NCBI GenBank assembly: GCA_965243485.1
Contig: CBDEVP010000001.1
Span: forward strand, 5,121,835-5,185,834
From: Cyclobacteriaceae bacterium
GTDB lineage: Bacteria > Bacteroidota > Bacteroidia > Cytophagales > Cyclobacteriaceae
Length of the DNA: 64,000 nt
Direction: 5' to 3'
Position 1 is the stretch's first letter; every line of letters begins with the position of its first letter. Position numbers and translations under genes: made by a program. The notes below the pieces were generated by a model that saw only the letters and a list, made by a program, of their open reading frames with translations, ran no database searches and was not told the origin of the DNA. Shown piece by piece: positions 7,996-48,741 of this stretch.

Positions 7996-9243
7996 CTACT
8001 TATTTCCAAATACTTTCTCAACTGCCTCAAGGTAGCCATAACCCCACCGCATGTCCGGTTCAAGGTAACTGCCCTCCACCCATTCATTCCATGAGTTGAT
8101 GGTGATCATTGGATATTGATCTGGTCTTTCATCAACATACTGTTTTGCTTTCATCAGAAAAGCCTCAAAACTTTTAGGGTTGGTATTTAATGCAATGCCT
8201 TTCTTCTCAACAAAACGAGGATTATTATCCCATCCGATCGACACGTTCATATAGTATGGTATATTCATGGCACTGTCGATTTTGAGCAGATCCTCCCACG
8301 CCTCCATACCCCACTGCACATAGTCTTTTCCAGGAGGTTTTCCCAGACCCGCATGATGAACCCAAACATAGCTGGTGATACTGTTCGCATTGATAGACTT
8401 AATAGCTTCGTACAAATTGTACTTCTTATTTGGCCGATCTACACCTGAAATATCCTTGACCAGCCAGTTTCTGGAGGTAACCTGGATATGTAACCCGGGA
8501 AAACCTGCTTCTACTACCTTGTCCCTGAAATACTGAATAGCTTCAATCGTAGGCTCCACACCACCTAATCCGTCAAGCAAATTATCAAGATGATAGATAC
8601 TGAAAACCGGTTTCCCGTCAATTTTGAAATATGATGGGTGCTTAAAATACTTTTCAATAAATCTGTCGACCAACTTATCAAATATGGGCCGACTCACTGC
8701 CCCCGGCCAGATCACTACCTGATCGTGAGATCTTTCAATATCCCATGAAGTATTAGCATCATGATTGGCCCACATCAGGTAAAACTTCATTAGATGGTTA
8801 TTCTTTGCCTTAAGAAATCCTTCATTCAATGCCTCCTCCAGATATGGCTGATCCTCAAACCAATACCAATCATAGATAAAGACATCCACCCCATATTTGT
8901 GAGCGGTTTCAATTTTCATCTCCATCACCTTGGGATCATTCTCATAAACATGGCCCCATAAAGGCTGGCGTGGTTGATCGTGTCCTTCCCATTTGGGCAC
9001 AGCATTGTAAATCCGTTCCCATTCCCCGTCATCTCCCCTGTAGAATTCCTTCATTCGAGGTTCAGGATGGTAGGCAGGCCATACATAAGCAGCAATGGTA
9101 TAGGGGTCATCTTTCTCCACTTTGTCCTGTTCAGGACCCTGAGAAACCTGACCTCCTGTGCACCCAATCACCAGTAAAGAAATGATGAATAATTGAAAGA
9201 GCACATTTATGCTTTTACCTTTAGCTAATCTGTCTTTATTCAT
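7996..9243 (-). CDS. WbsX-like (Glyco_tran_WbsX-type TIM barrel) exported lipoprotein, probable glycoside hydrolase
   Basis: 415-aa ORF with a lipoprotein signal (LVIGC). Blocks HDQPRQPLWGHVYENDP, YGVDVFIYDWYWF, LMWANHDANTSW and INSWNEWVEGSYLEPD resemble the WbsX family pattern as I remember it. Confidence 0.55.
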   Translation of the reverse strand: MNKDRLAKGKSINVLFQLFIISLLVIGCTGGQVSQGPEQDKVEKDDPYTIAAYVWPAYHPEPRMKEFYRGDDGEWERIYNAVPKWEGHDQPRQPLWGHVYENDPKVMEMKIETAHKYGVDVFIYDWYWFEDQPYLEEALNEGFLKAKNNHLMKFYLMWANHDANTSWDIERSHDQVVIWPGAVSRPIFDKLVDRFIEKYFKHPSYFKIDGKPVFSIYHLDNLLDGLGGVEPTIEAIQYFRDKVVEAGFPGLHIQVTSRNWLVKDISGVDRPNKKYNLYEAIKSINANSITSYVWVHHAGLGKPPGKDYVQWGMEAWEDLLKIDSAMNIPYYMNVSIGWDNNPRFVEKKGIALNTNPKSFEAFLMKAKQYVDERPDQYPMITINSWNEWVEGSYLEPDMRWGYGYLEAVEKVFGNK

Positions 9244-9438: not shown

Positions 9439-9891
9439 TCACCAGAATTTAACCTTTATGACAATTTTCTTCACTTTTTCAGATTGGTCATAAATCACCC
9501 GGGGCTGATGTGCATCACCCGGGAAATAAACAGCAAACATGCCGGCAGTGAATCTTGTATAATCCGGAGTGGTATCAAATAATTCGTAGTCTTCTTCGCT
9601 CACATAGGCTTTGTATACTTTCAAAGAAGTCTTTGGAACAAATCCCATTGATTCCTTTCCAGCGACCAGGTACTGAACATCGATATATTGCCTGTGAGCT
9701 TCGGGATAGCTTTCGGAAGATGCGATGGTCTGATATGCCTGTACCATGGCGTAGATGTCTTCCCCCTGGATCTCATAACGCCCCACATTGAGTTTGGCAA
9801 GATCATTCTCCATGAGCCATTTCAGAGATCTTTCGATCCTGGGATGGACTCCAAAATATAAGTGAGCATTAGATAGCTGGTCGATAATCAT
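9439..9891 (-). CDS. YhcH/YjgK/YiaL (DUF386) family protein, NanQ-like sialic acid anomerase candidate
   Basis: 150-aa cytoplasmic ORF. The N-terminus MIIDQLSNAHLYFGVHPRIERSLKWL...GRYEIQGEDIYAMVQAYQT is typical of the EbgC/YhcH cupin family, which sits in nan operons in enterobacteria. Confidence 0.7.
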   Translation of the reverse strand: MIIDQLSNAHLYFGVHPRIERSLKWLMENDLAKLNVGRYEIQGEDIYAMVQAYQTIASSESYPEAHRQYIDVQYLVAGKESMGFVPKTSLKVYKAYVSEEDYELFDTTPDYTRFTAGMFAVYFPGDAHQPRVIYDQSEKVKKIVIKVKFW

Positions 9892-11518: not shown

Positions 11519-12934
11519 TTAAACCTGATCCACCCTCGGAAAAATGGGTGGTAAGGCTTCTACATCAATGATACCATCATTATTTCTGAGTTCTTCTCTG
11601 AGCCGGTTGATATCTACTTCAGCAAATGACACCCGATTTTCAACTACCTGAGCGGCAGCCAGTCCGGCGGCCTCACCCATCGCCATGATCGGGGCCATGA
11701 CCCTGACAGGCCCCAGCACCTGACCTTCAACAGACACCGCACGGCCGGGATTGATGAGATTCCTGATGGGCCGCGGGATCATAATCCGGTATGGCATAGG
11801 GGTACTTAATCCTTTCTGGACTTTGTACTTGTAGCCATCTACCTTATCATCAGCAAATGGCTGCACACTTGGCTTATCCGGATCCGGCAGATCCCAGCCA
11901 TACATGCTGAATCCAATGGTATCGTCAAAGGTGTTGTTTTCGGTCAAGTCCCTCACTGTAAGTGTAAAATCTCCGATGATCCTTCGTGTCTCCCTTATCC
12001 CCAACTGGGGTGCAATGGATTTAATCTTCACATTTTCAAATCCGGGAAAGTGCTTCTTAAAGATCTCCATCAATTTGTGGATCTCTTTCCGTCCACGAAC
12101 CATTCCTTTTGAAATAGACGAACCGTCGGTCCCGTCAACTCCTACCAGCCTTGTGGTGTTTATATAAAACTCACCTTTGTCCAGCAGCTGGGTAGCTATA
12201 AAAATGTCATACGGAAAATCCCATTCTCCAGTCTTCTTCAAGGAATTGATTAAATCCCTTAACTTCGGGTCCCTTAATTCCTCAATGTACCGGGTGAATT
12301 TATCCTGATCCACATTGTATACATGAAAAATCAGAGAAGCAGGGGTCATCTTACCATCCTCTCTCCTTCCTTTAATGGTTTCGCAGCCCGACTTGAAGGC
12401 AATATCCGCATTTCCGGTGGCATCAATGACAGCTTTGACCCTGATGGCCTGAAGCCCCGAGCGATTGTAGATGACGACATGGCTGATCTGCTCATCCGCA
12501 ACAATCGCATCCACGGCCTGCGTATGTAGCAAAACATCGACGCCCGCAGCTTTCAGTTTCTCATCCAGGAAAAGGTCCATGTAGAATGGATCAAATGGAA
12601 CGCCATGAATAAACCAGTTATACCAGCCAAAAGGATGATATTTCTCGTTCGGATTAAGTTCTGGTAAGAGTGCAAATCCCTTTTCGGTAGCCTCGGTAGA
12701 CAATTCCTTGAAGATCCCGCCAACAACCCACTCTCCTTCCTGGGTCCGGCCGCCCAGCCACTGAGAGACTAAAGCCGTCACTCCCATGCCACCCAGCTGT
12801 CCAGTACTTTCGACCAGCAAGACTTTCTGACCGGACCTGGCACTGGAAAGCGCCGCCGCACAACCTGCCGGACCTCCCCCACAAACGATGATGTCGTAGT
12901 CTGCATTCTCTTCAATAGTCACTTTATATTCCAT
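11519..12934 (-). CDS. FAD-dependent oxidoreductase (FAD_oxidored-type), cytoplasmic
   Basis: 471 aa with no signal peptide. N-terminal Rossmann dinucleotide motif DIIVCGGGPAGCAAALSSAR. Confidence 0.8.
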   Translation of the reverse strand: MEYKVTIEENADYDIIVCGGGPAGCAAALSSARSGQKVLLVESTGQLGGMGVTALVSQWLGGRTQEGEWVVGGIFKELSTEATEKGFALLPELNPNEKYHPFGWYNWFIHGVPFDPFYMDLFLDEKLKAAGVDVLLHTQAVDAIVADEQISHVVIYNRSGLQAIRVKAVIDATGNADIAFKSGCETIKGRREDGKMTPASLIFHVYNVDQDKFTRYIEELRDPKLRDLINSLKKTGEWDFPYDIFIATQLLDKGEFYINTTRLVGVDGTDGSSISKGMVRGRKEIHKLMEIFKKHFPGFENVKIKSIAPQLGIRETRRIIGDFTLTVRDLTENNTFDDTIGFSMYGWDLPDPDKPSVQPFADDKVDGYKYKVQKGLSTPMPYRIMIPRPIRNLINPGRAVSVEGQVLGPVRVMAPIMAMGEAAGLAAAQVVENRVSFAEVDINRLREELRNNDGIIDVEALPPIFPRVDQV

Positions 12935-12986: not shown

Positions 12987-14780
12987 TCATTTAGGGTTTC
13001 TATTTAGTATTTCCTCAGTAACTACATAGCTCCGTAAAAAAGGCATTTCCGCAGGCTCGCCGCCATTCCCTCCAACTGTATAATCGGCAATGACAATCGT
13101 ACCATCGTCCATCTGCGTAATAGCCGGATATCCGGTGTGCGCAAAATGATCAGCTATCAATTCCAGCGCTACGATCCTGTCTCTTCTGAATTGATCAGGG
13201 TACCCTTTGGATACATCCCATGTCCAATGAATATCATAATCCTCCTTGTTGTCGACCTTTACGCTAAGTGATCTCCAGTGACTTTCAGAGTCCATCTTCC
13301 AGTCATCGTTGGCACCAACTTCGACATCATCAAAATTGAAATTGCTGACATGCCTGTTTCCTATCTGAACATGTCTGTTTTCAAGTCCTTTGATCGAAGA
13401 CCGGAGGCGGGACTTTCCATCAACCAGAATCTCCAACTTGCTGTCTCTCCTGATCACCTCGTATTTATGCCACTTGCTGGCGTCGATATCAAATCCTTTG
13501 TCAGGATCAAGCGTGAGGTATACCCTGTCAGGTTCAATGCTCACCCAGCATCCCGCACCTATCACGCATCCGTTACTTTCCGCACGATCCACTTTTATCT
13601 CGGCATTGATTTGAACTGTGGTCTCCGGCGACTGTGCAGGATAGAATCCCAAAACAAAGGAATTACGAAGTCCATCTCCCGTCCTGATCACCATAGATCC
13701 ATCTTCCAGGGTGCAGGTTTCTTCCCTGTAAACAAATGTTGCAGGCTGGTAACTGAACTTTTCCTCCGGATCGAATAAGAAAGCGTAGGTTCCCGGCGTT
13801 CCCCACCTGTTTCGGTAAACCGCTAATAATTTGCCTGACTGTAGTTTTCGCACGATCGGACGTTGGGCGTAGATCGGCGACAATTGCGGATTTTCCCAGG
13901 ATTGACCACCATCATAACTATAAACAAAGCGGCTGGGCTGCTTAAATGCTCCACCACCCATGCCAACACGCGTGATGGCCAAAAGCTTATCTCCTTCGAG
14001 GTTGACGGTACCGACCTCGCAATCTCCAAAATAAGGGTCATCTGCAATAATAACAGGTGGTTCCCATGTCTTTCCACCGTCTGTTGATCGCACCGATTCA
14101 TTTAGGTAATAGATATCTCCCCACGGCATAGGCGCATCCCAGAGCTTATCAGTTTTCTTTGACCTTGTCCTGGTGTATATCAAATTGCCATTTTCTAATT
14201 CTGTTATGTACCCCGGCTCTCCACCCAAATCATCAATCTTGTGGGGTCCGGTCCACGTTTTTCCATCATCATGGCTCCAAAACAGGTGATTAGACATACC
14301 CCTGTTATCTTGTTGCCATTGGCTCAGCATCGGCCAATCCTGCTGGGACGTGCGGTTTCCCCAATCACAGATGATGACCAGTCTGCCGTCACCCAAAGCC
14401 GTCAGTTGGGGGGCGATCCAGACACCTTTCTGATTCCATACATCACCGTGGGCGATGCTGTGGTGACCGGACCAATTCTTACCATCTGTTGAATAGGTTA
14501 CCATGATATCAGTACTTACTGCAGTATGGAAATCAGATCTTCTATAAGTGGCTACCAATCCGGTTTTTGTGGCAGCAACGCCGGCTACTGAATAGTACCA
14601 GCCGTCTTTACTGAAGGATAACGGATCAGGAACGGTGTCTCTCACCAGATCATACTTGTATTCATCCGGAAGACGATACATCCCCTGCGAGAAGGACGGG
14701 TTACAAATTCCCAACCCAACCAGGAACAGTCCATAAAATAGTAAGTTTCTATTTCCCATTGATTTGAAGTTCATGCTCAA
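12987..14780 (-). CDS. BNR/Asp-box sialidase-like beta-propeller lipoprotein with an inserted jelly-roll-like domain
   Basis: 597 aa with a lipoprotein signal (LGIC). Asp-boxes YSTDGKNW, SHDDGKTW, STDGGKTW and SYDGGQSW; no FRIP motif seen. Alternative start at Met8 (14759). It overlaps the upstream PhyH stop. Confidence 0.7.
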   Translation of the reverse strand: MSMNFKSMGNRNLLFYGLFLVGLGICNPSFSQGMYRLPDEYKYDLVRDTVPDPLSFSKDGWYYSVAGVAATKTGLVATYRRSDFHTAVSTDIMVTYSTDGKNWSGHHSIAHGDVWNQKGVWIAPQLTALGDGRLVIICDWGNRTSQQDWPMLSQWQQDNRGMSNHLFWSHDDGKTWTGPHKIDDLGGEPGYITELENGNLIYTRTRSKKTDKLWDAPMPWGDIYYLNESVRSTDGGKTWEPPVIIADDPYFGDCEVGTVNLEGDKLLAITRVGMGGGAFKQPSRFVYSYDGGQSWENPQLSPIYAQRPIVRKLQSGKLLAVYRNRWGTPGTYAFLFDPEEKFSYQPATFVYREETCTLEDGSMVIRTGDGLRNSFVLGFYPAQSPETTVQINAEIKVDRAESNGCVIGAGCWVSIEPDRVYLTLDPDKGFDIDASKWHKYEVIRRDSKLEILVDGKSRLRSSIKGLENRHVQIGNRHVSNFNFDDVEVGANDDWKMDSESHWRSLSVKVDNKEDYDIHWTWDVSKGYPDQFRRDRIVALELIADHFAHTGYPAITQMDDGTIVIADYTVGGNGGEPAEMPFLRSYVVTEEILNRNPK

Positions 14781-15555
14781 AATTTCTTACTTCTTCAAAC
14801 TGCGTGGAACCAGCCAATAGTTTACCTAACCTTGGCTTCCGATGATTATATACCTCCACTGCATCCGCATCGGCATATCTTAAAAAGAGTATCCTTCTGT
14901 CCCTGGTCTTCGAAAAATTGCCATTGGAGTTGTGTAAGGTCCAGCAATGGAAAATCAGAGTATCACCGGGTTCCATGTGCATGGGAATGGCCTTGCTCTC
15001 ATCCACATCCACATGAATAGCCTCCAGACCTTCTCTATCCCGCTCCTTAATTTGGATCTGACCCTCGAGGTGACTTTTGGGTATTAAATACAAACATCCA
15101 TTGTCGTCATCAACCTTCTCTAATGCGGTGAGCGAAGTGATGGTATTGTAGGGTTCTAATTCTCCATATCCATTATCCTGATGCCAGTCAAATGACTTCG
15201 TATTTCCACGCATCTTGAATGTAAGCTGGGAAGTGGCACCTTTGATATTTGGTCCGATGATTTGTTTTGCAATTTCAAGGATGGGTCCCTGAAAGTAAAA
15301 ATCCCTGACGGCCTGTGACTTTTTATGTATATCAACCAGTAATGAATTTTGCAGCCATGTGCCGTCTTCTCTGAAAGGCCCTTTTTCCTTATTCCACTCT
15401 CTCATCGACTCCTCCAAGAGGACCTCCACCCCTTTTTCGGTCAAAGTTTTACCCAACAACAGGTATCCATTTTCCTGGTAAAACTGCAGCTGCTCATCTG
15501 TCAGTTTTCTATAATTAAACAAGTCCTTATTCATTGGAATGATTTGATTTTTCAA
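14749..15555 (-). CDS. phytanoyl-CoA dioxygenase (PhyH) family Fe(II)/2-oxoglutarate dioxygenase
   Basis: 268 aa, cytoplasmic. HxD facial-triad motif in WHQDNGY, distal His in FHCWTLHNS and an Arg-rich RDRRILF block. The start overlaps the upstream transporter gene by 29 nt. Confidence 0.75.
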   Translation of the reverse strand: MKNQIIPMNKDLFNYRKLTDEQLQFYQENGYLLLGKTLTEKGVEVLLEESMREWNKEKGPFREDGTWLQNSLLVDIHKKSQAVRDFYFQGPILEIAKQIIGPNIKGATSQLTFKMRGNTKSFDWHQDNGYGELEPYNTITSLTALEKVDDDNGCLYLIPKSHLEGQIQIKERDREGLEAIHVDVDESKAIPMHMEPGDTLIFHCWTLHNSNGNFSKTRDRRILFLRYADADAVEVYNHRKPRLGKLLAGSTQFEEVRNFEHELQINGK

Positions 15556-18106
15556 TTGTATAAAATGTTAAACCTTTAAGATCTTTTGTGCCGGGAAAGA
15601 AATAGCTGGCCAGCCAACCAAACAGAAATGCACTGACCATCCCTATGCCGCTATATAAAAAGAAGTTCACCTGCGTATATTCTTTTACCAAGAACAGTAA
15701 CAAAGCACTTAAAACGGCCCCAATGCTGGCTCCTACAGCACTGGCTCTCAGGGTGAAAATGCCAAGTACAAAAATCCCTGTCATAGCTCCGGTAAATAAG
15801 CTGGCCACTTCCAGGATTATGTCCCATACCGAGGTAATTTCTACCTGACTCATTACGAGGGCGATGAGCGTTCCAAGCAAACCGAATCCAATAGTTGTAA
15901 ACTGTGCAATTCTTACTTTCCTGGATTCATCATAATTGTCCAAAGCTTCTCCAAAAAAGTCTCTCATGAGAACGGTGGTGCTGCTATGAATAGAACTGTC
16001 CACACTAGACATAGCTGCTGCAAATATTCCGGCGATAATGACCCCACTTATTCCTACAGGGAGGTTTTGTCCGATAAAATAGGGTACGATGCCATCAGGA
16101 GAAAGCGAGGGATCCAGTGATTGCGGGTTCAGCTTGTAATAAACAAATAAGGCAGTGCCCAGACCAAACACAAGCAGCGCCCAGGGTATGCTGACCAGGG
16201 CATCCGTCCAGAGTGCCTTTGCAGTCTCTTTTTCATTCCTTGTTGTCAGATAACGTTGAACAACCGATTGATCAGTAGCCAGCATACTGATCCTGTTAAA
16301 AATATTTCCAATAATTATCACCCAGAAAACAGCCATAGTAAGGTTCAGGTCGAAGCTTCCCAGACTGAACTTATGATCATTCCAGGCAATCTGTGTAAAG
16401 CGGGCCATACCCCCCTCAATTTGAAAGAGGATGAAAATGATGCAGAGGAAGACCCCTCCAAAAAGCACAAACGCCTGGATCACATCGATCCATATTACGG
16501 CATTCATACCGCCCAGCGCAGTATAGGCAGTGGCCAAAATTCCAATCATTGAAATACATAGCAGCACATCTATCCCTGTAACTGCTGATAGTGCCAATGA
16601 AGGAAGGAAAATAATGGCTCCTAATCTACCCAGCAATTGGAAAAGGAGATAAAGGGATGCTATGAATAACCTGACAAATTGATTAAATCTTTTTTCAAGA
16701 TACTCATAGGCACTTGTGACATTGAGTCTTCGGTAAAAGGGCACAAAAATGTAGACCGTCACAGGTACGGCTACAAACCAGGTAAAGACACCGGCAAAAT
16801 AACTCCAGTCCGTTGCAAAAGATTTGGCCGGAATGGCCATGAAACCAATAGAGCTCACCTGGGCAGCCATCATACTCACTCCCGCAGCCCAGAACGGAAT
16901 TTTTCGTCCACCCAGAAAAAAGTCACCCGTATTCTTGTTTCTCTTAGCAAAATAGGGTCCTAACAATACAATAATGCCTAAGTAAAAGAACAAGGTCAGG
17001 TAATCCAGCCAGTGAAAGTGATTCATTTCACCCTTAGCCAGCCTTCCTGAGTAAATTAGGGGTGTTCTTTCACCAGGTGTATTTTCTCCTCCCGGAATGA
17101 TCAGCCTGCCATCATATTGAACAACCGAAGTTGCAGCCAATCCCTGTGGCATGGTTCCCACTTCGTACCATATGTTGGTAATTGTATTATACGAATAGAT
17201 CTGCATCGGGAATCTATAGGCACTTTTGAGTATTTCCAGTTTGTCGATATCATGGCCGTCAGAACCGCTAAATACCCAGATCTGAGATAACCCGATAGGC
17301 GCTGAAGCAGCAACAAATAGTGGACGTGGTAGAGGTTGTTTCTTTGACCAGTTATTCCGGGTTTTTAACGGGTCATATTCCCAAACTTCGTTCAGATACT
17401 TATCACTGGTTTTTCCCCCGATCAGGTAGAGACATTGATGATCACCATTTGTTTGTGTGATCAGGCTTGCTCCTGCTCTCGAAAATCCCTCCCAGGAGTC
17501 TTCCTTCATCCATCCCGAGGAGATATCGCTGAGATCCAATCTTAGAAACTGGTCTGATGATTGGACCCCCTCAGGATGAACCATATATCCCCCGGCCACA
17601 TAGATCCTTTCCGCCAATAGAGCTGCCGAGAGATGAGAGGTTGGATAGGGAAGCTCGGGTAGTTGCTGGTTGAAAGAGATCTTATTCTCAGCGGTGAATG
17701 TTAGTTTAAACACACTGCTTAGTTTCCCCTGCGCATTCTCACCACCGATCAGTACCAGTCCATCCTTTAAGAGAACAGCCGCTCCATGCGCACATTTTTC
17801 AGGCAGCAGGCCGCGGTATTGCCAGGTGGATGTGTCACTATCTAATGTCAGGGAAAAGACTGAATCAAGATAAATCTTGGTTCCTCCGTCCCATTTATCG
17901 TTGTCAAAATAGCTCCCTCCTGCAACGATCAGCTGATTATCGACAATTCCAATGTATGCGCCACTTAATCCTTTGTCGATTGGCAATGATGGAAAAGCGC
18001 GTTCTTCCCAGGAGATCCAATTTTCTGTCTCTTTGGAAAAACCCTTTACACTTATCAAGCAGAATATTAGAAAAAGACTATTGAAGAATATTAACCGTCC
18101 TGTCAT
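15527..18106 (-). CDS. fusion protein: NanM-like Kelch propeller (cyclically permuted mutarotase type) + sodium:solute symporter (SSS/SLC5)
   Basis: 859 aa. Residues about 1-355 carry a signal/anchor plus Kelch-type repeats (VAGGSYF, LIGGENAQG, VAGGYM, LIGGKTS, FSGSDG, IPGGEN). Residues about 365-859 are a polytopic SSS permease (GDFFLGGRKIPFWAAGVSMMAAQVSSIGFMAIPAKSFATDW). Confidence 0.8.
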   Translation of the reverse strand: MTGRLIFFNSLFLIFCLISVKGFSKETENWISWEERAFPSLPIDKGLSGAYIGIVDNQLIVAGGSYFDNDKWDGGTKIYLDSVFSLTLDSDTSTWQYRGLLPEKCAHGAAVLLKDGLVLIGGENAQGKLSSVFKLTFTAENKISFNQQLPELPYPTSHLSAALLAERIYVAGGYMVHPEGVQSSDQFLRLDLSDISSGWMKEDSWEGFSRAGASLITQTNGDHQCLYLIGGKTSDKYLNEVWEYDPLKTRNNWSKKQPLPRPLFVAASAPIGLSQIWVFSGSDGHDIDKLEILKSAYRFPMQIYSYNTITNIWYEVGTMPQGLAATSVVQYDGRLIIPGGENTPGERTPLIYSGRLAKGEMNHFHWLDYLTLFFYLGIIVLLGPYFAKRNKNTGDFFLGGRKIPFWAAGVSMMAAQVSSIGFMAIPAKSFATDWSYFAGVFTWFVAVPVTVYIFVPFYRRLNVTSAYEYLEKRFNQFVRLFIASLYLLFQLLGRLGAIIFLPSLALSAVTGIDVLLCISMIGILATAYTALGGMNAVIWIDVIQAFVLFGGVFLCIIFILFQIEGGMARFTQIAWNDHKFSLGSFDLNLTMAVFWVIIIGNIFNRISMLATDQSVVQRYLTTRNEKETAKALWTDALVSIPWALLVFGLGTALFVYYKLNPQSLDPSLSPDGIVPYFIGQNLPVGISGVIIAGIFAAAMSSVDSSIHSSTTVLMRDFFGEALDNYDESRKVRIAQFTTIGFGLLGTLIALVMSQVEITSVWDIILEVASLFTGAMTGIFVLGIFTLRASAVGASIGAVLSALLLFLVKEYTQVNFFLYSGIGMVSAFLFGWLASYFFPGTKDLKGLTFYTIEKSNHSNE

Positions 18107-18118: not shown

Positions 18119-19978
18119 TCATTCAACGGGGAGCCAAACATCGAACGTACCCCCAGCCTTACCCGCATCAGCAAATGGGATTAGATTTATTAATCCCTTG
18201 TCCGATTCCACTTCATATTGATACCCTGAAAGGACATTAGGATTTGGAGTAAGTTTCCCATTTTGTAAATCCTCCCTTTTAAAAGAGAAATCTGTTAACT
18301 CCCTGTTGTAATTCGGATCAAAAACCCATGTGATCGGACCTTTTTGAACACTCAAACTCTGAGTTTCTTTAGACCCTTTCAATCGTCTTAAGTTCTTGGG
18401 TACCAGGGTTATCATTCCGTAATCTACCCCTTTCGCATCCATCTTAAATTCAACTTCAAGCTGATCACCCTTTCTCCAGTTTCGCTGAATAATTATAAAA
18501 CCTTCAGAAATCTGTGGGTCCTTTATCAATTTGCTGTTTATCTTTAGTGAGTATGCTTCGCTAAAAGATGGAACTCTCAATTTAAGCATGAAGTCAACTG
18601 GCTCTCTGGGGTCTACAGCAAGCTGAATATTTCCATTTAACGGATACAAGGTTTTTTGATAAATATCTACATTGATGTTATTGATCTTCGTATTCACATG
18701 GGAGTCTTCATAGAAATTAACAACCAGGCTTTTTTGATCCTGTGATGTCCAATAAAAAATCTGCGGGAAATAACTAATCATCATGCTATTCATTGTGTAG
18801 CAACAAAATGAATGACTACCATGTGCCATGCATTTAAAACCATTTGAACCAAAAAAAGAAACGTTGCCAGCTACGGCACACGAGGCTCCTGCATCATGTG
18901 CATTTATAGAATTGTATATAACAGACTCTACAATATTCATATACTTTATATCACCTGTTAACTCGAACATTTTAATACAAAAGATCGCAAATGGACAGAT
19001 ATCGCATAAATAATCAAGCCCAAGACCTTGGTTTTCCTCTACTCGATTGAATTCTACAAATTGATGAAAATTGTTGGAAGCGGAAACCAACATTGTGTCT
19101 GATAAAGTAGTCCTATACAAGTTTATAAATCCAAGAAAATTAAGGAAATCTTCACAAGGTTTACGATGATAATTCTGGCGATTATTTGGATCATTTGTAA
19201 GCAAAAATCTTGGTCCAATCACTGAATAGTACCTTGACTTAATATAATTACAAAACGCCAGGTAATCATCATTTCCTTCCAATTCGTAAAGCCAGGCAAA
19301 TGGATATATGGCGCATGTAGCTCCGGAACTAAACATGGTTGCCGGGTTAGAAGCAAGAATATCTACTTTACCATCATCTGACTGGTAAAAAGTTCCATTT
19401 GGCTTATTTGAATCCCCTCCAAAAATATCCATATAAAGTTCAGCAATCTTCTTTGCCATCTCTAATGATTTTCTGTCATTAAACACTTCGTGATGAGTTA
19501 ATAAACCTATCATCAAGAGATTGTGATTCCATGTATCAAAATGCCAGGTTTGCTTTTTTATGTGGTCAATTTGATTCCAGTTCAGCTCAAAAAATCTGTA
19601 GCCAGGTTTATAAGATCCCAGATAGCCATTGTCAAGCTGTTGCTTCTGTAGTCTGTAAATGCATCTATCAATGAGTTCTTTTAGCTTATTATCTGGTTTG
19701 TATTTATAACTGTTACACGCAGCCACCAGCCATTTCCCAATGTGTTCTCCGCTAAACCAACGAAAGGTATCGATCGGATGCTCATAGTACGATAAGAATT
19801 CCTCCAAATCAGTCATATTCTTGACTCTGGTTTCAAGGTTATTGTCAAAACGCGCTCCCAGAATACCATTAAGCTCAAGTTGACCCTGGACAGGAACTAA
19901 CTCATTTTTTAAAGATTGAGATTTAAGGTTTAGTAGCCAGCATATTGCGATAATAGTAATTATTGATTTTCTGTACAT
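18119..19978 (-). CDS. DUF1680 / GH127-like glycoside hydrolase, secreted
   Basis: 619 aa with a signal peptide. GEHIGKWLVAA block typical of DUF1680 and a vicinal Cys pair in SHSFCCYTMN. The length fits GH127/GH146-type enzymes. Confidence 0.55.
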   Translation of the reverse strand: MYRKSIITIIAICWLLNLKSQSLKNELVPVQGQLELNGILGARFDNNLETRVKNMTDLEEFLSYYEHPIDTFRWFSGEHIGKWLVAACNSYKYKPDNKLKELIDRCIYRLQKQQLDNGYLGSYKPGYRFFELNWNQIDHIKKQTWHFDTWNHNLLMIGLLTHHEVFNDRKSLEMAKKIAELYMDIFGGDSNKPNGTFYQSDDGKVDILASNPATMFSSGATCAIYPFAWLYELEGNDDYLAFCNYIKSRYYSVIGPRFLLTNDPNNRQNYHRKPCEDFLNFLGFINLYRTTLSDTMLVSASNNFHQFVEFNRVEENQGLGLDYLCDICPFAIFCIKMFELTGDIKYMNIVESVIYNSINAHDAGASCAVAGNVSFFGSNGFKCMAHGSHSFCCYTMNSMMISYFPQIFYWTSQDQKSLVVNFYEDSHVNTKINNINVDIYQKTLYPLNGNIQLAVDPREPVDFMLKLRVPSFSEAYSLKINSKLIKDPQISEGFIIIQRNWRKGDQLEVEFKMDAKGVDYGMITLVPKNLRRLKGSKETQSLSVQKGPITWVFDPNYNRELTDFSFKREDLQNGKLTPNPNVLSGYQYEVESDKGLINLIPFADAGKAGGTFDVWLPVE

Positions 19979-20083: not shown

Positions 20084-21634
20084 TTACCAGCTAGGATTTT
20101 GTGTCAATAAACTACCTTTGATTGCCAATTGATTCTGAGGAATCGGAAACAGTTCATGCTTCCCGGCAATTACAGGTTTTCCCTGGGCTTGCAAGGTAGA
20201 AATCAGTCTTCCTGTTCTCTTTAGGTCAAACCAACGGTGACCCTCACCGGCCAGTTCTATGGCCCGCTCATTCAGAATAGCATCGCGTAACTCATCTTTG
20301 CTGAGACCAGTTGTAGCATCCGCCGGAAAGCCTGTCTCAACCCATGGTCCGCCACCATCCCCATCTCTGGCTCGCTTCCTGATCTTGTTCAACTCGGCCA
20401 CCGCACCGGCTTTATCATCCAACTCATTCAAAGCTTCTGCCTTCATTAAGATGACATCGGCGTATCTCAGGATCATGATATTGGCTGAAAAAGCATATCC
20501 TGACCTGCTTGTATTCGCACTTGCATCTACAAACTTCTGAGGCATACTTGGAAGGCCTCTTGGAAACTGAGTGTAGTCGATCGGATTACCAAATTCATCA
20601 ATTCCGCTATAAACGAAAGTCATATCTCTTCTGTAATCCTGTGGGTCGAACATATCAAAAAATTGTTGCTCCGCAACGATACCTCCTGTGCCGGGGGTAG
20701 CCGCTTCTCCCGAGAAATCGGCATTAATTCCGTTCAATTGAATGTCCCAGGTGGTATTTGGCAGGTGGAAGACACCCCAGATTGACAATTCGCCATTCCC
20801 TGTGGTCCCACCTCTTGTGGTGATAAACTCAAAGATTGATTCTGAATTGAAAGCATCTTCCTTGCCAATAGCCTTTTCGAAATCAGCAGTCAAGGCATAC
20901 ACCCCACTGGTGATTACTTCATTGCATGCATCCACACAGGCCTGATAATCCCCCGGCTGAGCGCTTGGAGATCCGGCTCTCGTCAAATACACTTTGGCTA
21001 AAAGGCTGGCTGCCGCTCCGCTGGTTGCTCGCCCGGTTTCATTGGTTGCCGCCATATTATCTTTGGCAAAAATCAAGTCATTGATGATGAATTGATATAC
21101 TTCTGATTCGGGACTCCTTGGAGAGATAGCCTCCGCCGGGCTTGTGACAGATTTATCTCGTATCACAATATCCCCGAACAATCTCATCAGATTAAAATGA
21201 TGAAGTGCCCTGAGAAACCTGGCTTCACCTTCAAATTGAGAAGCAGCTGTTGCTGAAATATCGGCAATGGGCAGATTGTCAATGACTGCATTGGCGGCTG
21301 CAATAGCCTCGTAGATGTGCCGGTATGTAGCGTTTACATTATTATCTCCTGAAGTATAAGTGAACTCATGTAGCGGTCTGTCACCTCCAAGTCCTATAGG
21401 ATCCATTTCGTCGGAAGCAAAATTGACCATATAGAGGAATCTTCTCTTGTAATACTGTATGCTCCCACTTCCCAGGCGATCATAGGCACCAACCAGGGCA
21501 AGAAACATATCGTTTTCAGTCCGGTAAGCCAACTCGGGAGAATTGAAATCAGGTGCGTCTTCTGATAGAAACTCTTCGCATGCGCTGAAATGAAGCGCAA
21601 GCATAATGATGAAAATATATTTTAAAGTCTTCAT
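20084..21634 (-). CDS. SusD/RagB family nutrient-binding outer membrane lipoprotein
   Basis: 516 aa with a lipoprotein signal (HFSAC). Sits immediately downstream of a SusC-like gene and ends in a typical SusD C-terminus (RWFDLKRTGR...QNPSW). Confidence 0.9.
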   Translation of the reverse strand: MKTLKYIFIIMLALHFSACEEFLSEDAPDFNSPELAYRTENDMFLALVGAYDRLGSGSIQYYKRRFLYMVNFASDEMDPIGLGGDRPLHEFTYTSGDNNVNATYRHIYEAIAAANAVIDNLPIADISATAASQFEGEARFLRALHHFNLMRLFGDIVIRDKSVTSPAEAISPRSPESEVYQFIINDLIFAKDNMAATNETGRATSGAAASLLAKVYLTRAGSPSAQPGDYQACVDACNEVITSGVYALTADFEKAIGKEDAFNSESIFEFITTRGGTTGNGELSIWGVFHLPNTTWDIQLNGINADFSGEAATPGTGGIVAEQQFFDMFDPQDYRRDMTFVYSGIDEFGNPIDYTQFPRGLPSMPQKFVDASANTSRSGYAFSANIMILRYADVILMKAEALNELDDKAGAVAELNKIRKRARDGDGGGPWVETGFPADATTGLSKDELRDAILNERAIELAGEGHRWFDLKRTGRLISTLQAQGKPVIAGKHELFPIPQNQLAIKGSLLTQNPSW

Positions 21635-21652: not shown

Positions 21653-24600
21653 TTAGAAACCAAGGTTTACTCCAATCAGATAGGTAGTAGCTGAGGGATA
21701 GGCCGCAAAGTCAATACCCTGTCGACCACCTACAGTGCTGATCAATGCAGGATCCACACCCGAGTAGCTGGTAAAAGTGGCCAGGTTTTGTCCTGACAGA
21801 TAAACTTTAGCTGACGATATCCAGCCTGGAAGATTGGTGAACGTGTAACCGAGCTGGATATTCTGGATCTTGATATAGGATGCATCTTCCACATATGTCG
21901 ACAGCAGCGCATCCTGATAGACAGATCTTGATCCCGCCTGTGGAATGTTACTCTCTGTATTAGAAGGGGTCCACCGGTTGAGCAAATCGACGTGTTTGTT
22001 TGAGCCGGAGTTGACTGAATTAAATATCTCAGCTGCTGCTCCATTGACAGCTTCAAAGCCTTGCATTCCGCGGATGAAAACAGTCAATGACAAGCCCTTA
22101 TATCTAAAGGTGTTGTTAAAACCAAAGGCAAGATCCGGAATTGAATTACCAAGAATCACCCGATCATCCTGATTCCACAATGAATCTCCATTGATATCCA
22201 TGATTTTCAATTCACCTGGTCTGATTCCGGTAGTATCGTAACCTGCGGAAGCTGCCTGATTAATTTCATTTTGAGTATTCCAGACACCATCGGCCCGATA
22301 GCCATAGAAGGATCCAAATGGCTGTCCAACAGAATCTATTTTAGAAATCACTCCACTTATTGCAGTGCTAAAGCCCTGATATTCCCTGGGCGCACTCGGA
22401 CCATTGCTCAAAACCTCATTATTGAGGAAAGTCATGTTGACTTCAGTGGTCCACTCGAAGTCAGATGTCCTGACAGGAGATCCTCCCAGAACCACTTCAA
22501 ATCCATTGCTGCTCTGACTTCCGGTATTGAAGATTTTGTTGGCTTCAACACCATTGGTGTAGTCCAGCGTAATTAGCAATAATTGGTCTTCGGTCGTCTT
22601 GTCAAAATATTCCACAGTACCGTACAACCGGTTATTAAACAATCCGAAATCCACTCCGATATTGCTAGTGATTGTCTCTTCCCAGCCCAGATCTGAATTG
22701 GCCAGCTGAGAGGGAGCTGTACCAGTGTACACCACTCCGCCAAAAATGTATTGGCCTCCGGAACCTACAGCCGGAAAGGAAGAGTATGCGCCAATGGCCT
22801 GGTTACCAGTGACACCATAACCTGCCCTCAATTTCAGGTCACTTACCAGGTCACTGTTTTGTAAAAACGATTCTTCGGAAATTCTCCATCCTGCGGATAC
22901 AGCACCGAAATTTCCCCATTTGTTGTTCTCTCCAAACACGGATGCACCATCTCTCCTAAAGCTTGCGGCAAGCAGATATTTCCCGCCGTATTCGTAGTTT
23001 ACTCTACCCAGAAATCCAGCCAGCGTGCGCTCGCTGTAATCTGAAAATGCATTGGTGCTGGTACTTGCATTTTCAAGTGCATTCAATCTGAAATTATCAT
23101 CCGGAAATCCCAGTGCCGTTGTTCTGGCAGCATATGACTTTGATCCCTGTAAGCTTGAACCGACAACTACCGAAAGGGAATGATCTGCAAAAGTCTTCGC
23201 ATAAGTAAGGGTATATTCATTGATCCATGACTTATTTTCAATCGCCGTCAGGTCTGCACGTCCATTAGTTAAACCTCCCAGATAGCTGGACCTGCCGGGG
23301 AAGTAGTATTGCCCCTGAGCGTTGCTGATATCCAAACCAAGAGAAGCCCTGAAATCCAGACCATCCATCAAATTGGCATCCAGTGCGAAATTTCCCAAAA
23401 AAGTTTTGGTAACCACGTTTGAGGTGATATCCCTTAAAGCCCATACCGGGTTTTCGGGTTTATTGCTTTCGACCCAATCCACGATATAGTCTCCCTCATC
23501 ATCAAACACACTTATTGTGGGTGAGGTTGCATAAGCTTTTTGAATAGGTCCCCTCACATTATCACTTCCTGAATCATCTGTTCCTCCAACATTTTTGCTT
23601 TCGCTGTAGGTCATCCGGGCAGATAACCCGACGCGGTCATTCACATCAAAATCAAGGTTCGACCTGAAGGTATAGCGCTCCAGACCTGTATTCAATACAA
23701 TACCATCCTGATCAAAATAAGAACCCGAGAAGTAATAATTCACACTTTCCGAGCCTCCGGATACCGATATCTGATGGTTTTCCAATAGGGCCTCAGTACC
23801 TGACCTCACAATTTCATCCTGCCAATCTGTACCTGCTCCCATCCCTGAAATCTCAGCATCAGAAAAGCCCGGATTCTGACCTCTGTTGATAAGGTACTCA
23901 TTGAGAAACTCGGCATGTTGCTGGCCATTCATCAGGTCCATCTTATTGTGCAATGACTGCACCCCTACCTGGCTGCTAATGTTCACCTGTGCTTTTTGGG
24001 CGTATTTTCCTTTCTTGGTGGTGATGATAATGACCCCATTGGCACCACGGGCACCGTAAATGGCAGTTGAGGCGGCATCTTTTAAAACCTGTATGGATTC
24101 TATGTCCTGTGGATTTAGCAAAGACAACGGACTGGAAGACGGATTCATTGGCTGATCCTCACCGGGGGCATTGGTCCGTTCGCCACCGCCAACCTGAACA
24201 CCATCAATGACATACAGAGGCTGAGTACCCGCATTGGCAGAGCTGCTACCTCTGATATTGACCTGCATACCCGCACCCGGTGCGCCGGAAGCAGGAGTAA
24301 TATTCAGTCCTGCAACTCTTCCCTGCAGCAATGACTGGACGTTCTGCTCAACCTGTTTGTTGATCTCATCCACATCCACCACTGAAATTGATCCGGTAAC
24401 ATTCTTTTTCTGCTGAGTACCATATCCTACAACCACCACTTCGCTCAAAGCCTGTACATCAGCTTCCAGGGTTACCGGGATCGTAGAACGACTTTTGATT
24501 GCAATTTCCTGATTGAGGTAACCGACAAAACTAATTACGAGGGTAGCATTGTCCGTATCATTCACTTCTAATGAGTAATTGCCATCAACATCAGTGATGG

Positions 24601-24772
24601 TTCCGATTGATGAACCCTTTAACTGTACTGATGCTCCCGGCAAAGGGTCTCCGTTATTATCGGACACTTTGCCTGTGATCACACTTTGAGACCACACAGA
24701 GAGGCCGGCCAAAATGCACACTAAAGCCAAGTAAATTTTTTTCATAATACATGTTGTTTCGTTACAAATCAA
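21653..24772 (-). CDS. SusC/RagA family TonB-dependent receptor (no STN signalling domain)
   Basis: 1039 aa. Carboxypeptidase-regulatory-like domain (GKVSDNNGDPLPGASVQLKG), plug region (VVVGYGTQQKKNVTGS) and a C-terminal beta-barrel ending in F. The likely true start is MKKIYLALV at 24745. Confidence 0.9.
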   Translation of the reverse strand: MICNETTCIMKKIYLALVCILAGLSVWSQSVITGKVSDNNGDPLPGASVQLKGSSIGTITDVDGNYSLEVNDTDNATLVISFVGYLNQEIAIKSRSTIPVTLEADVQALSEVVVVGYGTQQKKNVTGSISVVDVDEINKQVEQNVQSLLQGRVAGLNITPASGAPGAGMQVNIRGSSSANAGTQPLYVIDGVQVGGGERTNAPGEDQPMNPSSSPLSLLNPQDIESIQVLKDAASTAIYGARGANGVIIITTKKGKYAQKAQVNISSQVGVQSLHNKMDLMNGQQHAEFLNEYLINRGQNPGFSDAEISGMGAGTDWQDEIVRSGTEALLENHQISVSGGSESVNYYFSGSYFDQDGIVLNTGLERYTFRSNLDFDVNDRVGLSARMTYSESKNVGGTDDSGSDNVRGPIQKAYATSPTISVFDDEGDYIVDWVESNKPENPVWALRDITSNVVTKTFLGNFALDANLMDGLDFRASLGLDISNAQGQYYFPGRSSYLGGLTNGRADLTAIENKSWINEYTLTYAKTFADHSLSVVVGSSLQGSKSYAARTTALGFPDDNFRLNALENASTSTNAFSDYSERTLAGFLGRVNYEYGGKYLLAASFRRDGASVFGENNKWGNFGAVSAGWRISEESFLQNSDLVSDLKLRAGYGVTGNQAIGAYSSFPAVGSGGQYIFGGVVYTGTAPSQLANSDLGWEETITSNIGVDFGLFNNRLYGTVEYFDKTTEDQLLLITLDYTNGVEANKIFNTGSQSSNGFEVVLGGSPVRTSDFEWTTEVNMTFLNNEVLSNGPSAPREYQGFSTAISGVISKIDSVGQPFGSFYGYRADGVWNTQNEINQAASAGYDTTGIRPGELKIMDINGDSLWNQDDRVILGNSIPDLAFGFNNTFRYKGLSLTVFIRGMQGFEAVNGAAAEIFNSVNSGSNKHVDLLNRWTPSNTESNIPQAGSRSVYQDALLSTYVEDASYIKIQNIQLGYTFTNLPGWISSAKVYLSGQNLATFTSYSGVDPALISTVGGRQGIDFAAYPSATTYLIGVNLGF

Positions 24773-24980: not shown

Positions 24981-25718
24981 CTACAGTTCATCGCTGAAAA
25001 TATCATTCCTTTCGCGTTCCTCGTTCTGATACTCGCCATAGATGCGCAGCATCGTCTTTTTACCATGCTCAATATGCAAATCGATGCAAGAACGCAGTAG
25101 ATCTGTATCTTGCCGTTCAATTCCGTCGATCATCTGGGCATGTTCGTCAACCGCAAGCTTTAGCAGATCCCAGCTTCCGAATATGCGTTTCCTTTTATGA
25201 AATCGCGTGATCAGATTAGAATCGTGAACAATCTTCATCAAGCGCTGATTTTTAGCGATCTTTAGAATTGCCAGATGAAACTTTCCGTCCTGCCTGATGA
25301 TCTCAGCCACCAGCTCATCATCATATTTGTTACTATCGGGGTAATTATTGGGATCATTCGCTGCTTTCTGTATCATTTCAGCAAAGTCAGAATTAATACG
25401 TCTCAGTTCTTCAATATCAGTTGTACTTGCCAGCTTACTTGCCTGGATGGCAGCATGGATCTCCAGTGCTTTCCTGATCTCATAAATTTCTATGATTTCA
25501 TCCTCTGACGGATTTGCTACAAAAAACCCAACACCATTCTTTTGCACCATAATGCCCTCTGATACCAGTTGATGAATCGCTTCTCTGATAGGTATAAAAC
25601 TTACTCCTATCTCCTTGGCCAGTGCTCTATTGGATAATTTAGTATCCGGGCTGAGCTCTCCTGCTGCTATTTTCCGCCGCAGATATTTGTATGCCTTTTC
25701 CTTTAATGATTCACTCAT
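24981..25718 (-). CDS. GntR family transcriptional regulator (FadR/FCD subfamily)
   Basis: 245 aa. N-terminal winged HTH (KLSNRALAKEIGVSFIPIREAIHQLVSEGIM) and an all-helical C-terminal domain. Confidence 0.85.
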   Translation of the reverse strand: MSESLKEKAYKYLRRKIAAGELSPDTKLSNRALAKEIGVSFIPIREAIHQLVSEGIMVQKNGVGFFVANPSEDEIIEIYEIRKALEIHAAIQASKLASTTDIEELRRINSDFAEMIQKAANDPNNYPDSNKYDDELVAEIIRQDGKFHLAILKIAKNQRLMKIVHDSNLITRFHKRKRIFGSWDLLKLAVDEHAQMIDGIERQDTDLLRSCIDLHIEHGKKTMLRIYGEYQNEERERNDIFSDEL

Positions 25719-36040: not shown

Positions 36041-36119
36041 GATCTTACCCGGAAGGAATGTTGACGCAGACTTCCGGGTTAATTCTTTCTAAAGGTTTTT
36101 TCTCATCTATTTAGGGGTT

Positions 36120-37184: not shown

Positions 37185-37343
37185 CTAAAAAGTTTTTTTG
37201 AATACGATAATAAGAGTGGGATGTCTCTAAAATCTCATCCGATCGATGAGAAATTTTATTAAAATTTACCAATCAAACAATAAATACCCGAGTATTTTTA
37301 AAATAAATACTCTGATTAGACTACTTTGTTGTAATTATCACAA

Positions 37344-37925: not shown

Positions 37926-38027
37926 CTTATTTTAAAATAAGTAAAATGTTATCTCTTTCAAGCGAACAAGATTAGGATTATTTTCAATATGGACTCTTTA
38001 TTTCAAATTCTAACAAATTCGTTAACC

Positions 38028-39455: not shown

Positions 39456-39549
39456 GTACTGCAAAAAGTAAATAACCAAAGTATATATCCGGTTGAAGAG
39501 AATACTTTTAGAAATTGCCATTTTTATTTTGATTCTTGTGATTGCACAT

Positions 39550-39579
39550 AAAAAAAGTATCTGGCCATTAACCAGATAC
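39550..39579 (-). terminator. rho-independent terminator between susD and the downstream sulfatase
   Basis: 8-bp stem gtatctgg / ccagatac (39557-39564 and 39572-39579) with a 7-nt loop, followed on the minus strand by a 7-T run (39550-39556). Confidence 0.6.
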
Positions 39580-39660
39580 CTTTCTTTAAAATTAATGTTG
39601 TTTTGAACAATAGATTGCAATAGAACTATTGATTGGTTCAATAATCCTATTTTTAAGGTT

Positions 39661-39702
39661 TACCCCACGGCACCATGCATAATAAAATTGTGCCGTGGGG
39701 TA
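39661..39702 (-). terminator. 13-bp perfect inverted repeat just downstream of the susD stop; no T-run
   Basis: taccccacggcac (39661-39673) pairs with gtgccgtggggta (39690-39702) across a 16-nt loop. Confidence 0.4.
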
Positions 39703-39726
39703 ATTGAATTAATTACTTAATGCATT

Positions 39727-41316: not shown

Positions 41317-41346
41317 CTTACTATGATTTAAAATCCAAAATATGTT

Positions 41347-48734: not shown

Positions 48735-48741
48735 CTGATTT

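Follow-up and report, generated by a model that had tools for sequence, protein, structure and literature searches.

A SiaF-type mutarotase-permease fusion with a remodelled substrate pocket, probably for a ulosonic acid other than Neu5Ac, in a sulfatase-rich locus of a Cyclobacteriaceae bacterium

Fusions of a NanM-like mutarotase to a permease of the SSS family have been described before. Severi et al. 2021 (PMC8461474) assigned them to the SiaF clade of the ST5 transporters, in Bacteroidetes, Planctomycetes and Verrucomicrobia, proposed that SiaF feeds the β-anomer directly to the transporter, and noted that experimental evidence was very scarce. Here we analyzed F1, a gene for a protein of this kind in a 64,000-nucleotide (nt) stretch of the genome of a Cyclobacteriaceae bacterium (GenBank assembly GCA_965243485.1, contig CBDEVP010000001.1, positions 5,121,835 to 5,185,834; this whole stretch is "the window" below). 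The original prediction, made from the sequence alone, had left open whether such an architecture was already described; it was published in 2021 as SiaF, together with the idea of anomer handover, and the handover predicted for F1 therefore matches a published hypothesis. The fusion architecture of F1 is thus known, not new, and F1 opens no new category, since enzyme-transporter fusions are already in the literature. Its substrate pocket and gene neighbours set it apart, and we propose that F1 is probably a SiaF-type fusion for Na+-coupled uptake of a ulosonic acid other than N-acetylneuraminic acid (Neu5Ac), with a mutarotase tethered at the Nout terminus of the permease.

F1 shares with SiaF the order of leader peptide, six-bladed NanM-like propeller and SiaT-like SSS domain with 13 transmembrane helices (TMHs), the range of phyla (Bacteroidota, Planctomycetota and Verrucomicrobiota) and the mutarotase-to-permease logic; two features of SiaF, a NanM-like propeller with a leader and an SSS domain of SiaT-type Nout-Cin orientation, are found in F1. 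The SiaF set, with which F1 was compared by description, was defined from nan clusters of complete Neu5Ac catabolisers, with the Neu5Ac-binding residues mapped. F1, in contrast, lies in a sulfatase-rich polysaccharide utilization locus (PUL) without nan catabolic genes, lacks the essential SiaT contacts T63 and Q82, and is linked to a flavoenzyme of family PF12831. SiaT of P. mirabilis (5NV9/5NVA), the Na+-coupled Neu5Ac symporter, resembles the F1 permease in fold, Ser60, Arg135, the Na2 site and Asp182. An N-terminal propeller is absent from SiaT, and the changes from SiaT to F1 are T58Q, T63G, F78Y, Q82V, F243N, N247R and S345D. The propeller resembles E. coli NanM (YjhT, 2UVK), the periplasmic N-acetylneuraminate mutarotase, as an exported six-bladed Kelch propeller with a G-E-x5-R motif. 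It differs in being cyclically permuted, with F1 residues 23-139 matching profile positions 222-345 of 350 (the C-terminal third), and in being joined to a membrane protein; the dimerisation hairpin is reported to be missing from SiaF propellers (Severi et al. 2021, PMC8461474). The NanM-fused NanZ of Akkermansia (ST4) is an independent case of an exported N-terminal NanM on a sialic acid permease (Severi et al. 2021), but there the permease belongs to the MFS, and an extra transmembrane helix fixes the topology, whereas the F1 permease is an SSS protein.

The permease half of F1 is homologous to SiaT over its whole length. The SSF profile PF00474 matched F1 residues 396-798 with 129 bits (cutoff 22.8) over profile positions 1-404 of 406, and TIGR00813 (sss) scored 220 bits, above its cutoff of 184. 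By phmmer, the domain matched SiaT (5NV9) with an E value of 1.7e-100 over SiaT residues 3-486, and Foldseek placed the helical bundle on SiaT (5NVA) with a target TM score of 0.93 and a root mean square deviation (rmsd) of 2.4 Å. SiaT contacts Neu5Ac directly through T58, S60, T63, Q82 and R135 (Wahlgren et al. 2018, PMC5931594). Mutation of S60, T63, Q82 or R135, for example T63A or Q82D, abolishes transport, Thr58 is reported as the least conserved contact, F78, G81 and F243 line the pocket for the N-acetyl methyl group, and the contacts of N247 and Q250 are water mediated (PMC5931594). In an alignment without gaps around TM1, TM2 and TM6, the corresponding F1 residues are Q416, S418, G421, Y436, G439, V440, R494, N601 and R605, so that the SiaT string T,S,T,F,G,Q,R,F,N reads QSGYGVRNR in F1. 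The five direct contacts become Q/S/G/V/R, with only the carboxylate anchors Ser60 and Arg135 kept (as Ser418 and Arg494), and an extra arginine, Arg605, stands in place of N247. With two of five direct contacts kept, the Neu5Ac or nonulosonic acid substrate that had been implied from a SiaT-like site is doubtful. The Na2 site (A56, L59, A339, S342 and S343) reads A, V, A, S, S in F1, and the sodium contact at position 59 of SiaT is made through the backbone carbonyl (PMC5931594); the Na3 site (D182, S345 and S346) reads D, D, S, so that S345 is replaced by Asp.

The combination S60/G63/R135/N243/R247 (SiaT numbering) was common to 114 of the 119 top database matches, at 40-63% identity, and 100 of the 119 had the exact QSGYGVRNR string. 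For comparison we used 80 GTDB loci with relatives at 31-42% identity, among the matches listed, and eight F1-type loci, namely the window and seven others (L001, L002, L003, L085, L086, L087 and L088). In the 80 loci, Ser60 and Arg135 were invariant wherever the position was present, position 63 was Thr or Ser, and the remaining pocket positions varied widely, giving dozens of pocket types; over both sets, G63 was seen only in the F1 type. A pocket close to that of SiaT (S-T-x-G-Q-R-F-[NS]) occurred in only a few Verrucomicrobiota among the 80, in an Akkermansiaceae metagenome-assembled genome (MAG), Akkermansia muciniphila, a Verrucomicrobiaceae MAG and Rubritalea. Judged from these alignments, F1 belongs to a discrete subfamily that Gly63 and Arg247 together mark. 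Since the pocket is remodelled and the gene neighbours, described below, differ from those of nan clusters, the substrate of the F1 subfamily is probably not Neu5Ac. Deaminoneuraminic acid (Kdn) or another keto-deoxy acid, perhaps one with a further negative group to pair with Arg605, would be a reasonable guess, but no more than that. Loss of the Phe78/Phe243 "N-acetyl patch" was also considered as a diagnostic and rejected, because fusions that stand beside NanE-II lack Phe243 as well.

In the window, F1 lies in a series of genes for a GntR regulator, SusC, SusD, a GH127-like protein, F1, a PhyH dioxygenase, a BNR protein and a PF12831 FAD-dependent oxidoreductase, followed by genes for a sulfatase, a YhcH-family protein, a WbsX-like protein, GH78 and alpha-galactosidases (Table 1). 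We regard the F1 genes as an operon because the gap to the GH127-like gene is 12 nt and the F1 stop overlaps the probable PhyH start; a scan for promoters and terminators over 9-26 kb gave counts equal to the shuffled expectation. Pfam searches of the window neighbours found no NanA, NanE, NanK or NanE-II gene in the operon, and the NanA-like DHDPS genes of the window lie ~30-40 kb from F1. When neighbouring open reading frames (ORFs) were clustered, the PF12831 family was present in six of the eight F1-type loci and in none of the 80 others (Fisher p = 5e-8). Homologues of the flavoprotein (P0242-P0360) are 60-73% identical, from Cytophagales to Thermoguttaceae and Rhodopirellula, and the protein is more conserved than the transporter alongside it; at least 23 of the 120 top homologues come from contigs identical in length to that of an F1-type match, which suggests that both lie on the same contigs. 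Its structural model had a predicted local distance difference test (pLDDT) score of 85. A fold search with it returned only generic two-domain flavoproteins (TM scores of 0.4-0.5, rmsd of 7-14 Å) and no close solved relative, and sequence matches in PDB and NCBIfam covered the Rossmann motif only.

Across the F1-type loci, the recurrent partners are GntR, SusC/D, BNR proteins and the PF12831 flavoprotein, often with DHDPS and DUF386 genes; DUF386 genes, besides that of the window, are found in L086 and L088. The closest relative, in the Cytophagales MAG L087 (63% identity), has the same order of F1, PhyH, BNR and flavoprotein genes. The BNR protein of the window is 70% identical to that of L087 and divergent from GH33 sialidases, and it had no PDB sequence match at E<0.01 and no NCBIfam match. 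The BNR partner upstream of F1 in relatives has a YRIP motif and five Asp boxes, and it shares 25% identity with a canonical sialidase. Some relatives are triple fusions of ~1,230-1,280 amino acids (aa), with a lipoprotein-type leader, a GH33-like BNR domain (YRIP, five Asp boxes), the Kelch propeller and the SSS domain, and the BNR part of these proteins shares 61% identity with the stand-alone BNR gene that directly precedes F1-type genes elsewhere. A cytoplasmic location of the BNR domain in these ~1,260-aa proteins was considered and rejected, as BLAST placed the BNR domain N-terminally, behind the lipoprotein-type leader. NanE-II (GlcNAc 2-epimerase, PF07221) is a Bacteroidetes marker of genuine Neu5Ac catabolism. 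We found it in 15 loci, all with Thr63 pockets, and in none of the eight F1-type loci. The DHDPS family occurred in 54 of the 88 loci.

The propeller half is of the NanM/YjhT type with the GG-doublet pattern, as had been predicted. Pfam NANM (PF24996, the N-acetylneuraminate epimerase family) scored 88.4 bits against a cutoff of 45, several Kelch models also matched, the N-terminal half of F1 matched the E. coli YjhT/NanM structure 2UVK with an E value of 3.6e-11, and Foldseek placed the modelled propeller on six-bladed Kelch propellers with a target TM score of 0.8. TIGR03548 ("cyclically-permuted mutarotase") spans F1 residues 46-352 end to end with 114 bits against a cutoff of 243, and TIGR03547 (96 against 256) and NF010730 (94 against 416) also scored below their NCBIfam cutoffs. 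The subfamily alignment shows no exceptions at the doublets G63-G64 and G121-G122, G172-G173 is conserved in at least 90% of members, and at G339-G340 the two glycines are kept in 61 and 69 of 74 members, respectively. The F1 segment GENTPGER aligns with GEAKPGLR of E. coli NanM, whose E228 and R234 (precursor numbering, translated from MG1655) correspond to Glu209 and Arg215 after removal of the 19-residue leader, with the same G-E-x5-R spacing. Glu209 and Arg215 of mature YjhT were reportedly shown to be catalytic by mutagenesis in 2008. The F1 motif sits at the C-terminal end of the propeller, as cyclic permutation would place it. Equivalents of Glu341 and Arg347 are present in 65 and 53 of the 74 subfamily members, respectively, and GE(x5)R in 55 of 60 full-length fusions from the GTDB loci. 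With this NanM-spaced Glu/Arg pair, the propeller is a putative mutarotase. Divergence in the propeller half tracks that in the permease half (r = 0.68, Mantel p = 0.001), as shared ancestry alone would also bring about, and the nearest neighbours of F1 come from the same loci for both halves; from this co-divergence we take each subfamily to have its own propeller.

The ORF listing gives F1 as a single uninterrupted ORF of 859 aa with an ATG start on the minus strand, a strand that the original prediction had not given, and the ORF, the profiles and the structural model agree on the predicted order of signal or anchor, Kelch propeller and full SSS permease; in the profile searches that had been recommended, the Kelch models and PF00474 matched, and TIGR03547 and TIGR03548 matched below cutoff. 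The F1 N-terminus, MTGRLIFFNSLFLIFCLISVKG, has a basic residue followed by a hydrophobic stretch (mean Kyte-Doolittle hydropathy of residues 5-23, 2.11), and 65 of 74 subfamily members have a comparable hydrophobic N-terminus. A full-length AlphaFold2 (AF2) model built with 74 subfamily sequences was confident (pLDDT 91; predicted TM score [pTM] 0.90) and consisted of a helix (residues 2-20), a low-confidence or disordered linker (21-25), an all-beta propeller (31-356) and a helical bundle (366-836). The linker before TM1 has one basic residue and the loop after TM1 reads KRNKN, which is positive and thus inside; F1 aligns with all of SiaT (residues 3-486) without an additional helix, and SiaT and SiaF are Nout-Cin proteins with 13 TMHs (Severi et al. 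2021, PMC8461474). On the grounds of the leader helix, the Nout SSS domain of SiaT type and the positive-inside pattern after TM1, the propeller is predicted to be extracytoplasmic, and the topology of the fusion is coherent, as had been claimed. The database gene call for F1 (P0001, 843 aa) has an N-terminus 16 residues shorter than that of the F1 ORF. The better start is the ATG at 18106, which follows the upstream stop codon by 12 nt; losing the 16 residues would remove most of the hydrophobic leader. Surveys of F1-like proteins that rely on annotated starts for topology or SignalP predictions could thus miss the export signal (region 18059..18106, minus strand).

Taken together, these data suggest a route in which the SusC/D pair of the PUL would import oligosaccharides and, in the periplasm, exported glycosidases (the GH127-like and BNR proteins in the window) would liberate a 2-keto-3-deoxy (ulosonic) sugar acid in a single anomeric form. 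In most relatives this release would fall to the GH33-like "YRIP" sialidase, encoded directly upstream or fused in-frame. The tethered propeller, with Glu341 and Arg347, would equilibrate the anomers beside the permease mouth, and the permease would take up the sugar with Na+, Ser418 and Arg494 holding the carboxylate. Processing in the cytoplasm could then involve a YhcH-like anomerase, the PF12831 flavoenzyme and, in relatives, a NanA-like lyase of the DHDPS family; the YhcH/YjgK/YiaL (DUF386) family relates to a cytoplasmic N-acetylneuraminate anomerase.

Several points weigh against a substrate other than Neu5Ac or against the proposed enzymatic role. Only one crystal structure, of a homologue 37-45% identical, underlies the pocket argument, and position 243 is non-aromatic also in fusions adjoining NanE-II; the backbone amide of Gly63 could still hold the carboxylate, and Arg605 could make up for the lost contacts with the substrate remaining Neu5Ac. 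That F1-type loci lack NanE-II is without statistical significance (p = 0.34), and genes of this type could lie elsewhere in the 6.1-Mb genome. NanA-like DHDPS genes are present in three of the seven other F1-type loci (L001, L002 and L085), and the best NCBIfam matches of the L001 protein and of the two window DHDPS proteins include N-acetylneuraminate lyase, below cutoff. TIGR03548 and TIGR03547 stay under their trusted cutoffs, and Arg347 is lacking in 21 of 74 subfamily members. The literature searched yielded no experimental test of any SiaF protein and no later functional study, and the limited search for a Kdn or ulosonic acid PUL with F1-type partners found none. F1 might be an ordinary SiaF, a Na+ symporter for Neu5Ac (or N-glycolylneuraminic acid, Neu5Gc) with a Neu5Ac mutarotase and with neutral or compensatory pocket changes. 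SiaT is by far the closest solved structure, the carboxylate anchors and Na2 site are retained, Thr58 is reportedly the least conserved of the SiaT contacts, a YhcH-family gene is nearby, and relatives adjoin GH33-like YRIP sialidases, canonical BNR_assoc_N sialidases and NanA-like lyases. We nevertheless consider this unlikely: T63 and Q82, essential in SiaT, are Gly and Val in essentially every subfamily member, whereas every other fusion type sampled has Thr or Ser at position 63; no NanE, NanK, NanE-II, NagA or NagB gene was found in the window or in F1-type loci; the specific partner is an uncharacterised flavoenzyme that has no role in known Neu5Ac pathways; and F2, a second fusion in the window with a different pocket, suggests a division of labour.

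The propeller could also be non-enzymatic. While tethered, it might capture substrate or gate the permease, much as a fused binding protein would, or it might offer the periplasmic BNR glycosidase a place to dock. In the 74 subfamily members, Arg347 is replaced in 21 and Glu341 in 9, the motif is absent from 5 of the 60 full-length fusions, and proteobacterial relatives have a degenerate propeller-like N-terminal domain without it; the pTM value, which suggests a fixed interface between propeller and permease, and the TIGR03548 score below its cutoff can be read in the same way. However, F1 and most of its relatives retain both residues at NanM spacing, Pfam NANM scored above its gathering threshold, and L002 has a standalone NanM gene beside its triple fusion, which implies that mutarotation is part of the pathway; a non-catalytic propeller is thus rather improbable. 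That the single ORF arose by an assembly or sequencing error joining adjacent nanM and SSS genes is conceivable only in general terms, in that separate NanM and SSS genes occur in other organisms. More than 100 full-length homologues, 40-63% identical, can be aligned straight through the junction of the two domains with hardly a gap, 74 homologues from several phyla keep this junction colinear and nearly gap-free, database searches returned hundreds to thousands of fused homologues, an SSS domain of SiaT type starts Nout and so requires no extra transmembrane segment for an exported fused domain, and the AF2 model is confident over the junction. Because of the gap-free homologues and the full-length model, we regard an artefact as hardly credible.

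With F1 read as a transporter for a ulosonic acid other than Neu5Ac, F1-type fusions may, in a somewhat more tentative proposal, mark an undescribed route for such acids (for example Kdn or an acidic keto-deoxy sugar of algal or microbial glycans). If so, the route would be widespread in environmental Bacteroidota and Planctomycetota, and at its centre would stand a GH33-like exo-glycosidase together with the mutarotase-permease fusion and the highly conserved cytoplasmic PF12831 flavoenzyme. Some lineages would hold glycosidase, mutarotase and transporter in one polypeptide for release, anomerisation and import, and the SiaF architecture would represent a radiation of sugar-acid transporters with many pocket types and not a Neu5Ac-specific device. 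The architecture is far larger and more varied than the nan-cluster set that defined it, with thousands of members and diverse pockets around an invariant Ser/Arg carboxylate clamp, and at least one well-delimited subfamily is tied to enzymes outside known sialic acid pathways (PF12831 and, here, also PhyH and GH127-like proteins). If annotation pipelines or metagenomic surveys score F1-like genes as "sialic acid transporters", they would, on our reading, overestimate how far marine and soil Bacteroidota and Planctomycetota use Neu5Ac. Maribellus comscasis (7.8-Mb genome record), which carries an F1-type cluster, offers an experimental entry point, and the triple BNR-Kelch-SSS fusions are convenient for tests of substrate channelling at the transporter mouth.

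Table 1. Features of F1 and its neighbours in the window, and gene orders of F1-type loci elsewhere
Feature	Position	Strand	Basis or remarks
Whole fusion ORF F1: leader, Kelch/NanM-like propeller, 13-TMH SSS permease	15527..18106	-	ORF, profiles, SiaT alignment, AF2, Foldseek
F1 residues 1-22: predicted signal peptide or N-in/C-out anchor helix, MTGR + hydrophobic stretch	18041..18106	-	Hydropathy, AF2
F1 residues 31-356: six-bladed Kelch beta-propeller, NanM/YjhT-type, cyclically permuted	17039..18016	-	PF24996, TIGR03548, 2UVK, AF2, Foldseek
F1 residues 340-347, GENTPGER: putative mutarotase catalytic Glu341/Arg347	17066..17089	-	Spacing as in NanM
F1 residues 362-843: SSS (SLC5) permease domain homologous to P. 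mirabilis SiaT	15578..17023	-	phmmer, Foldseek, pocket mapping
GntR/FCD-family regulator	24981..25718	-	Pfam; same family in L001, L002, L085, L086, L087
SusC-like TonB-dependent transporter, PUL head	21653..24772	-	Pfam
SusD-like protein, PUL head	20084..21634	-	Pfam
GH127-like glycoside hydrolase	18119..19978	-	PF07944, PF20736; 12 nt upstream of F1, same operon
PhyH-family Fe(II)/2-oxoglutarate dioxygenase	14749..15555	-	Probable ATG overlaps F1 stop (ATGAATAA)
Exported BNR/Asp-box propeller protein	12987..14780	-	PF13088; three SxDxGxTW boxes, signal-like N-terminus
PF12831 FAD-dependent oxidoreductase, no leader, FAD-binding motif at residue 14	11519..12934	-	Pfam
YhcH/YjgK/YiaL (DUF386) protein	9439..9891	-	PF04074; TIGR00022 above cutoff; NF040884 125 bits vs 160
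WbsX-family (GH99/GH71-like) protein	7996..9243	-	Pfam; recurs downstream of L088 F1-type cluster
Locus L001, Maribellus comscasis			GntR, DHDPS, SusC, SusD, BNR, F1, flavoprotein, BNR, unknown, URO-D, sialidase, sulfatases
Locus L002, NCBI metagenome-assembled contig			GntR, NanM, DHDPS, SusC, SusD, [BNR-Kelch-SSS], flavoprotein
Locus L085, ENA/NCBI 6.5-Mb contig			GntR, DHDPS, BNR, BNR, F1, flavoprotein, unknown, BNR, BNR, second fusion
Locus L088, ENA/NCBI 1.6-Mb contig			SusC, SusD, BNR, F1, flavoprotein, unknown, DUF386, URO-D, WbsX
Locus L086, Chitinophaga sp.			DUF386 ... GntR, BNR, SusC, SusD, BNR, F1, DUF6772
Locus L003, Aeoliella (Planctomycetota)			DUF6772, DUF6385, F1
Triple fusions BNR-Kelch-SSS	L002 10001..13810		Proteins P0024, P0029, P0031, P0033-P0036, P0040, P0041, P0043, P0044
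~371-aa protein region	L001 15301..17512; L085 14053..15171; L087 16880..17998; L088 14080..16836		

The second Kelch/NanM-SSS fusion of the window, F2 (53190..55787, plus strand), has 865 aa and is 38% identical to F1. Its pocket reads M,S,T,Y,I,N,R,G,Q,P, and its putative catalytic motif is GEVKPRTR. In the surroundings (47892..57645), an AraC regulator and three sulfatases come before F2, and a NanA-like DHDPS gene (55807..56742) and a convergent SDR gene come after it; a weak DHDPS gene was also noted at 46833..47771. The F2 subfamily is larger still, with 3,166 matches at E<1e-20, including sulfatase-rich Planctomycetota. A relative of F2 in L089 (67% identity) adjoins sulfatases, a BNR gene, SusC/D and DHDPS genes, one of them full-length and one apparently split. 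Eight F2-type relatives of ~1,240-1,290 aa (P0143, P0145, P0146, P0148, P0152, P0154, P0155 and P0174), in which Pfam recognized only NANM/Kelch and SSF, may contain two propellers or an unrecognised extra domain.

SiaT-like SSS proteins of ~800 aa with the pocket N,S,S,Y,N,N,R,V,V,T were found in proteobacterial loci L062, L064, L067, L068, L073 and L078, whose hosts are Usitatibacter, an uncultured proteobacterium, Oxalobacteraceae, Dyella, Stenotrophomonas and Lysobacterales. Their exported propeller-like N-terminus of ~300 aa gave no phmmer match to the F1 Kelch domain and has no GE(x5)R motif. DHDPS genes adjoin these SSS genes in six of six cases and GH127-like genes in five of six; a GH127-like gene also lies directly upstream of F1.

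Other genes recur near F1-type fusions. A conserved protein of ~371 aa, with no Pfam or NCBIfam match, is encoded after the flavoprotein gene in four F1-type loci and was not seen beside the flavoprotein gene of the window; a URO-D-family gene lies further downstream of it in L001 and L088. In L003 (8593..9897) and L086 (12532..13800), a DUF6772 gene and a small gene adjoin the F1-type fusion in the place of the flavoprotein, the small gene encoding a DUF6385 protein in Aeoliella and a protein without Pfam match in Chitinophaga.

Elsewhere in the window, PhyH-family dioxygenases occur twice within sulfatase-rich PULs. The one at 14749..15555 (minus strand) is translationally coupled to F1, and the other (27675..28454, plus strand) adjoins a sulfatase and an AraC regulator. 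ORF clustering gave six sulfatase-family ORFs, and two more SusC/D pairs, both accompanied by an ECF sigma factor and a FecR anti-sigma factor, lie in 32450..46739 and 60550..63957. The closest named homologues come from Cytophagales and Maribellus. We note that a PSCyt1/DUF1501 gene pair, typical of Planctomycetota and Verrucomicrobiota, is present in this otherwise Bacteroidota-like genome.

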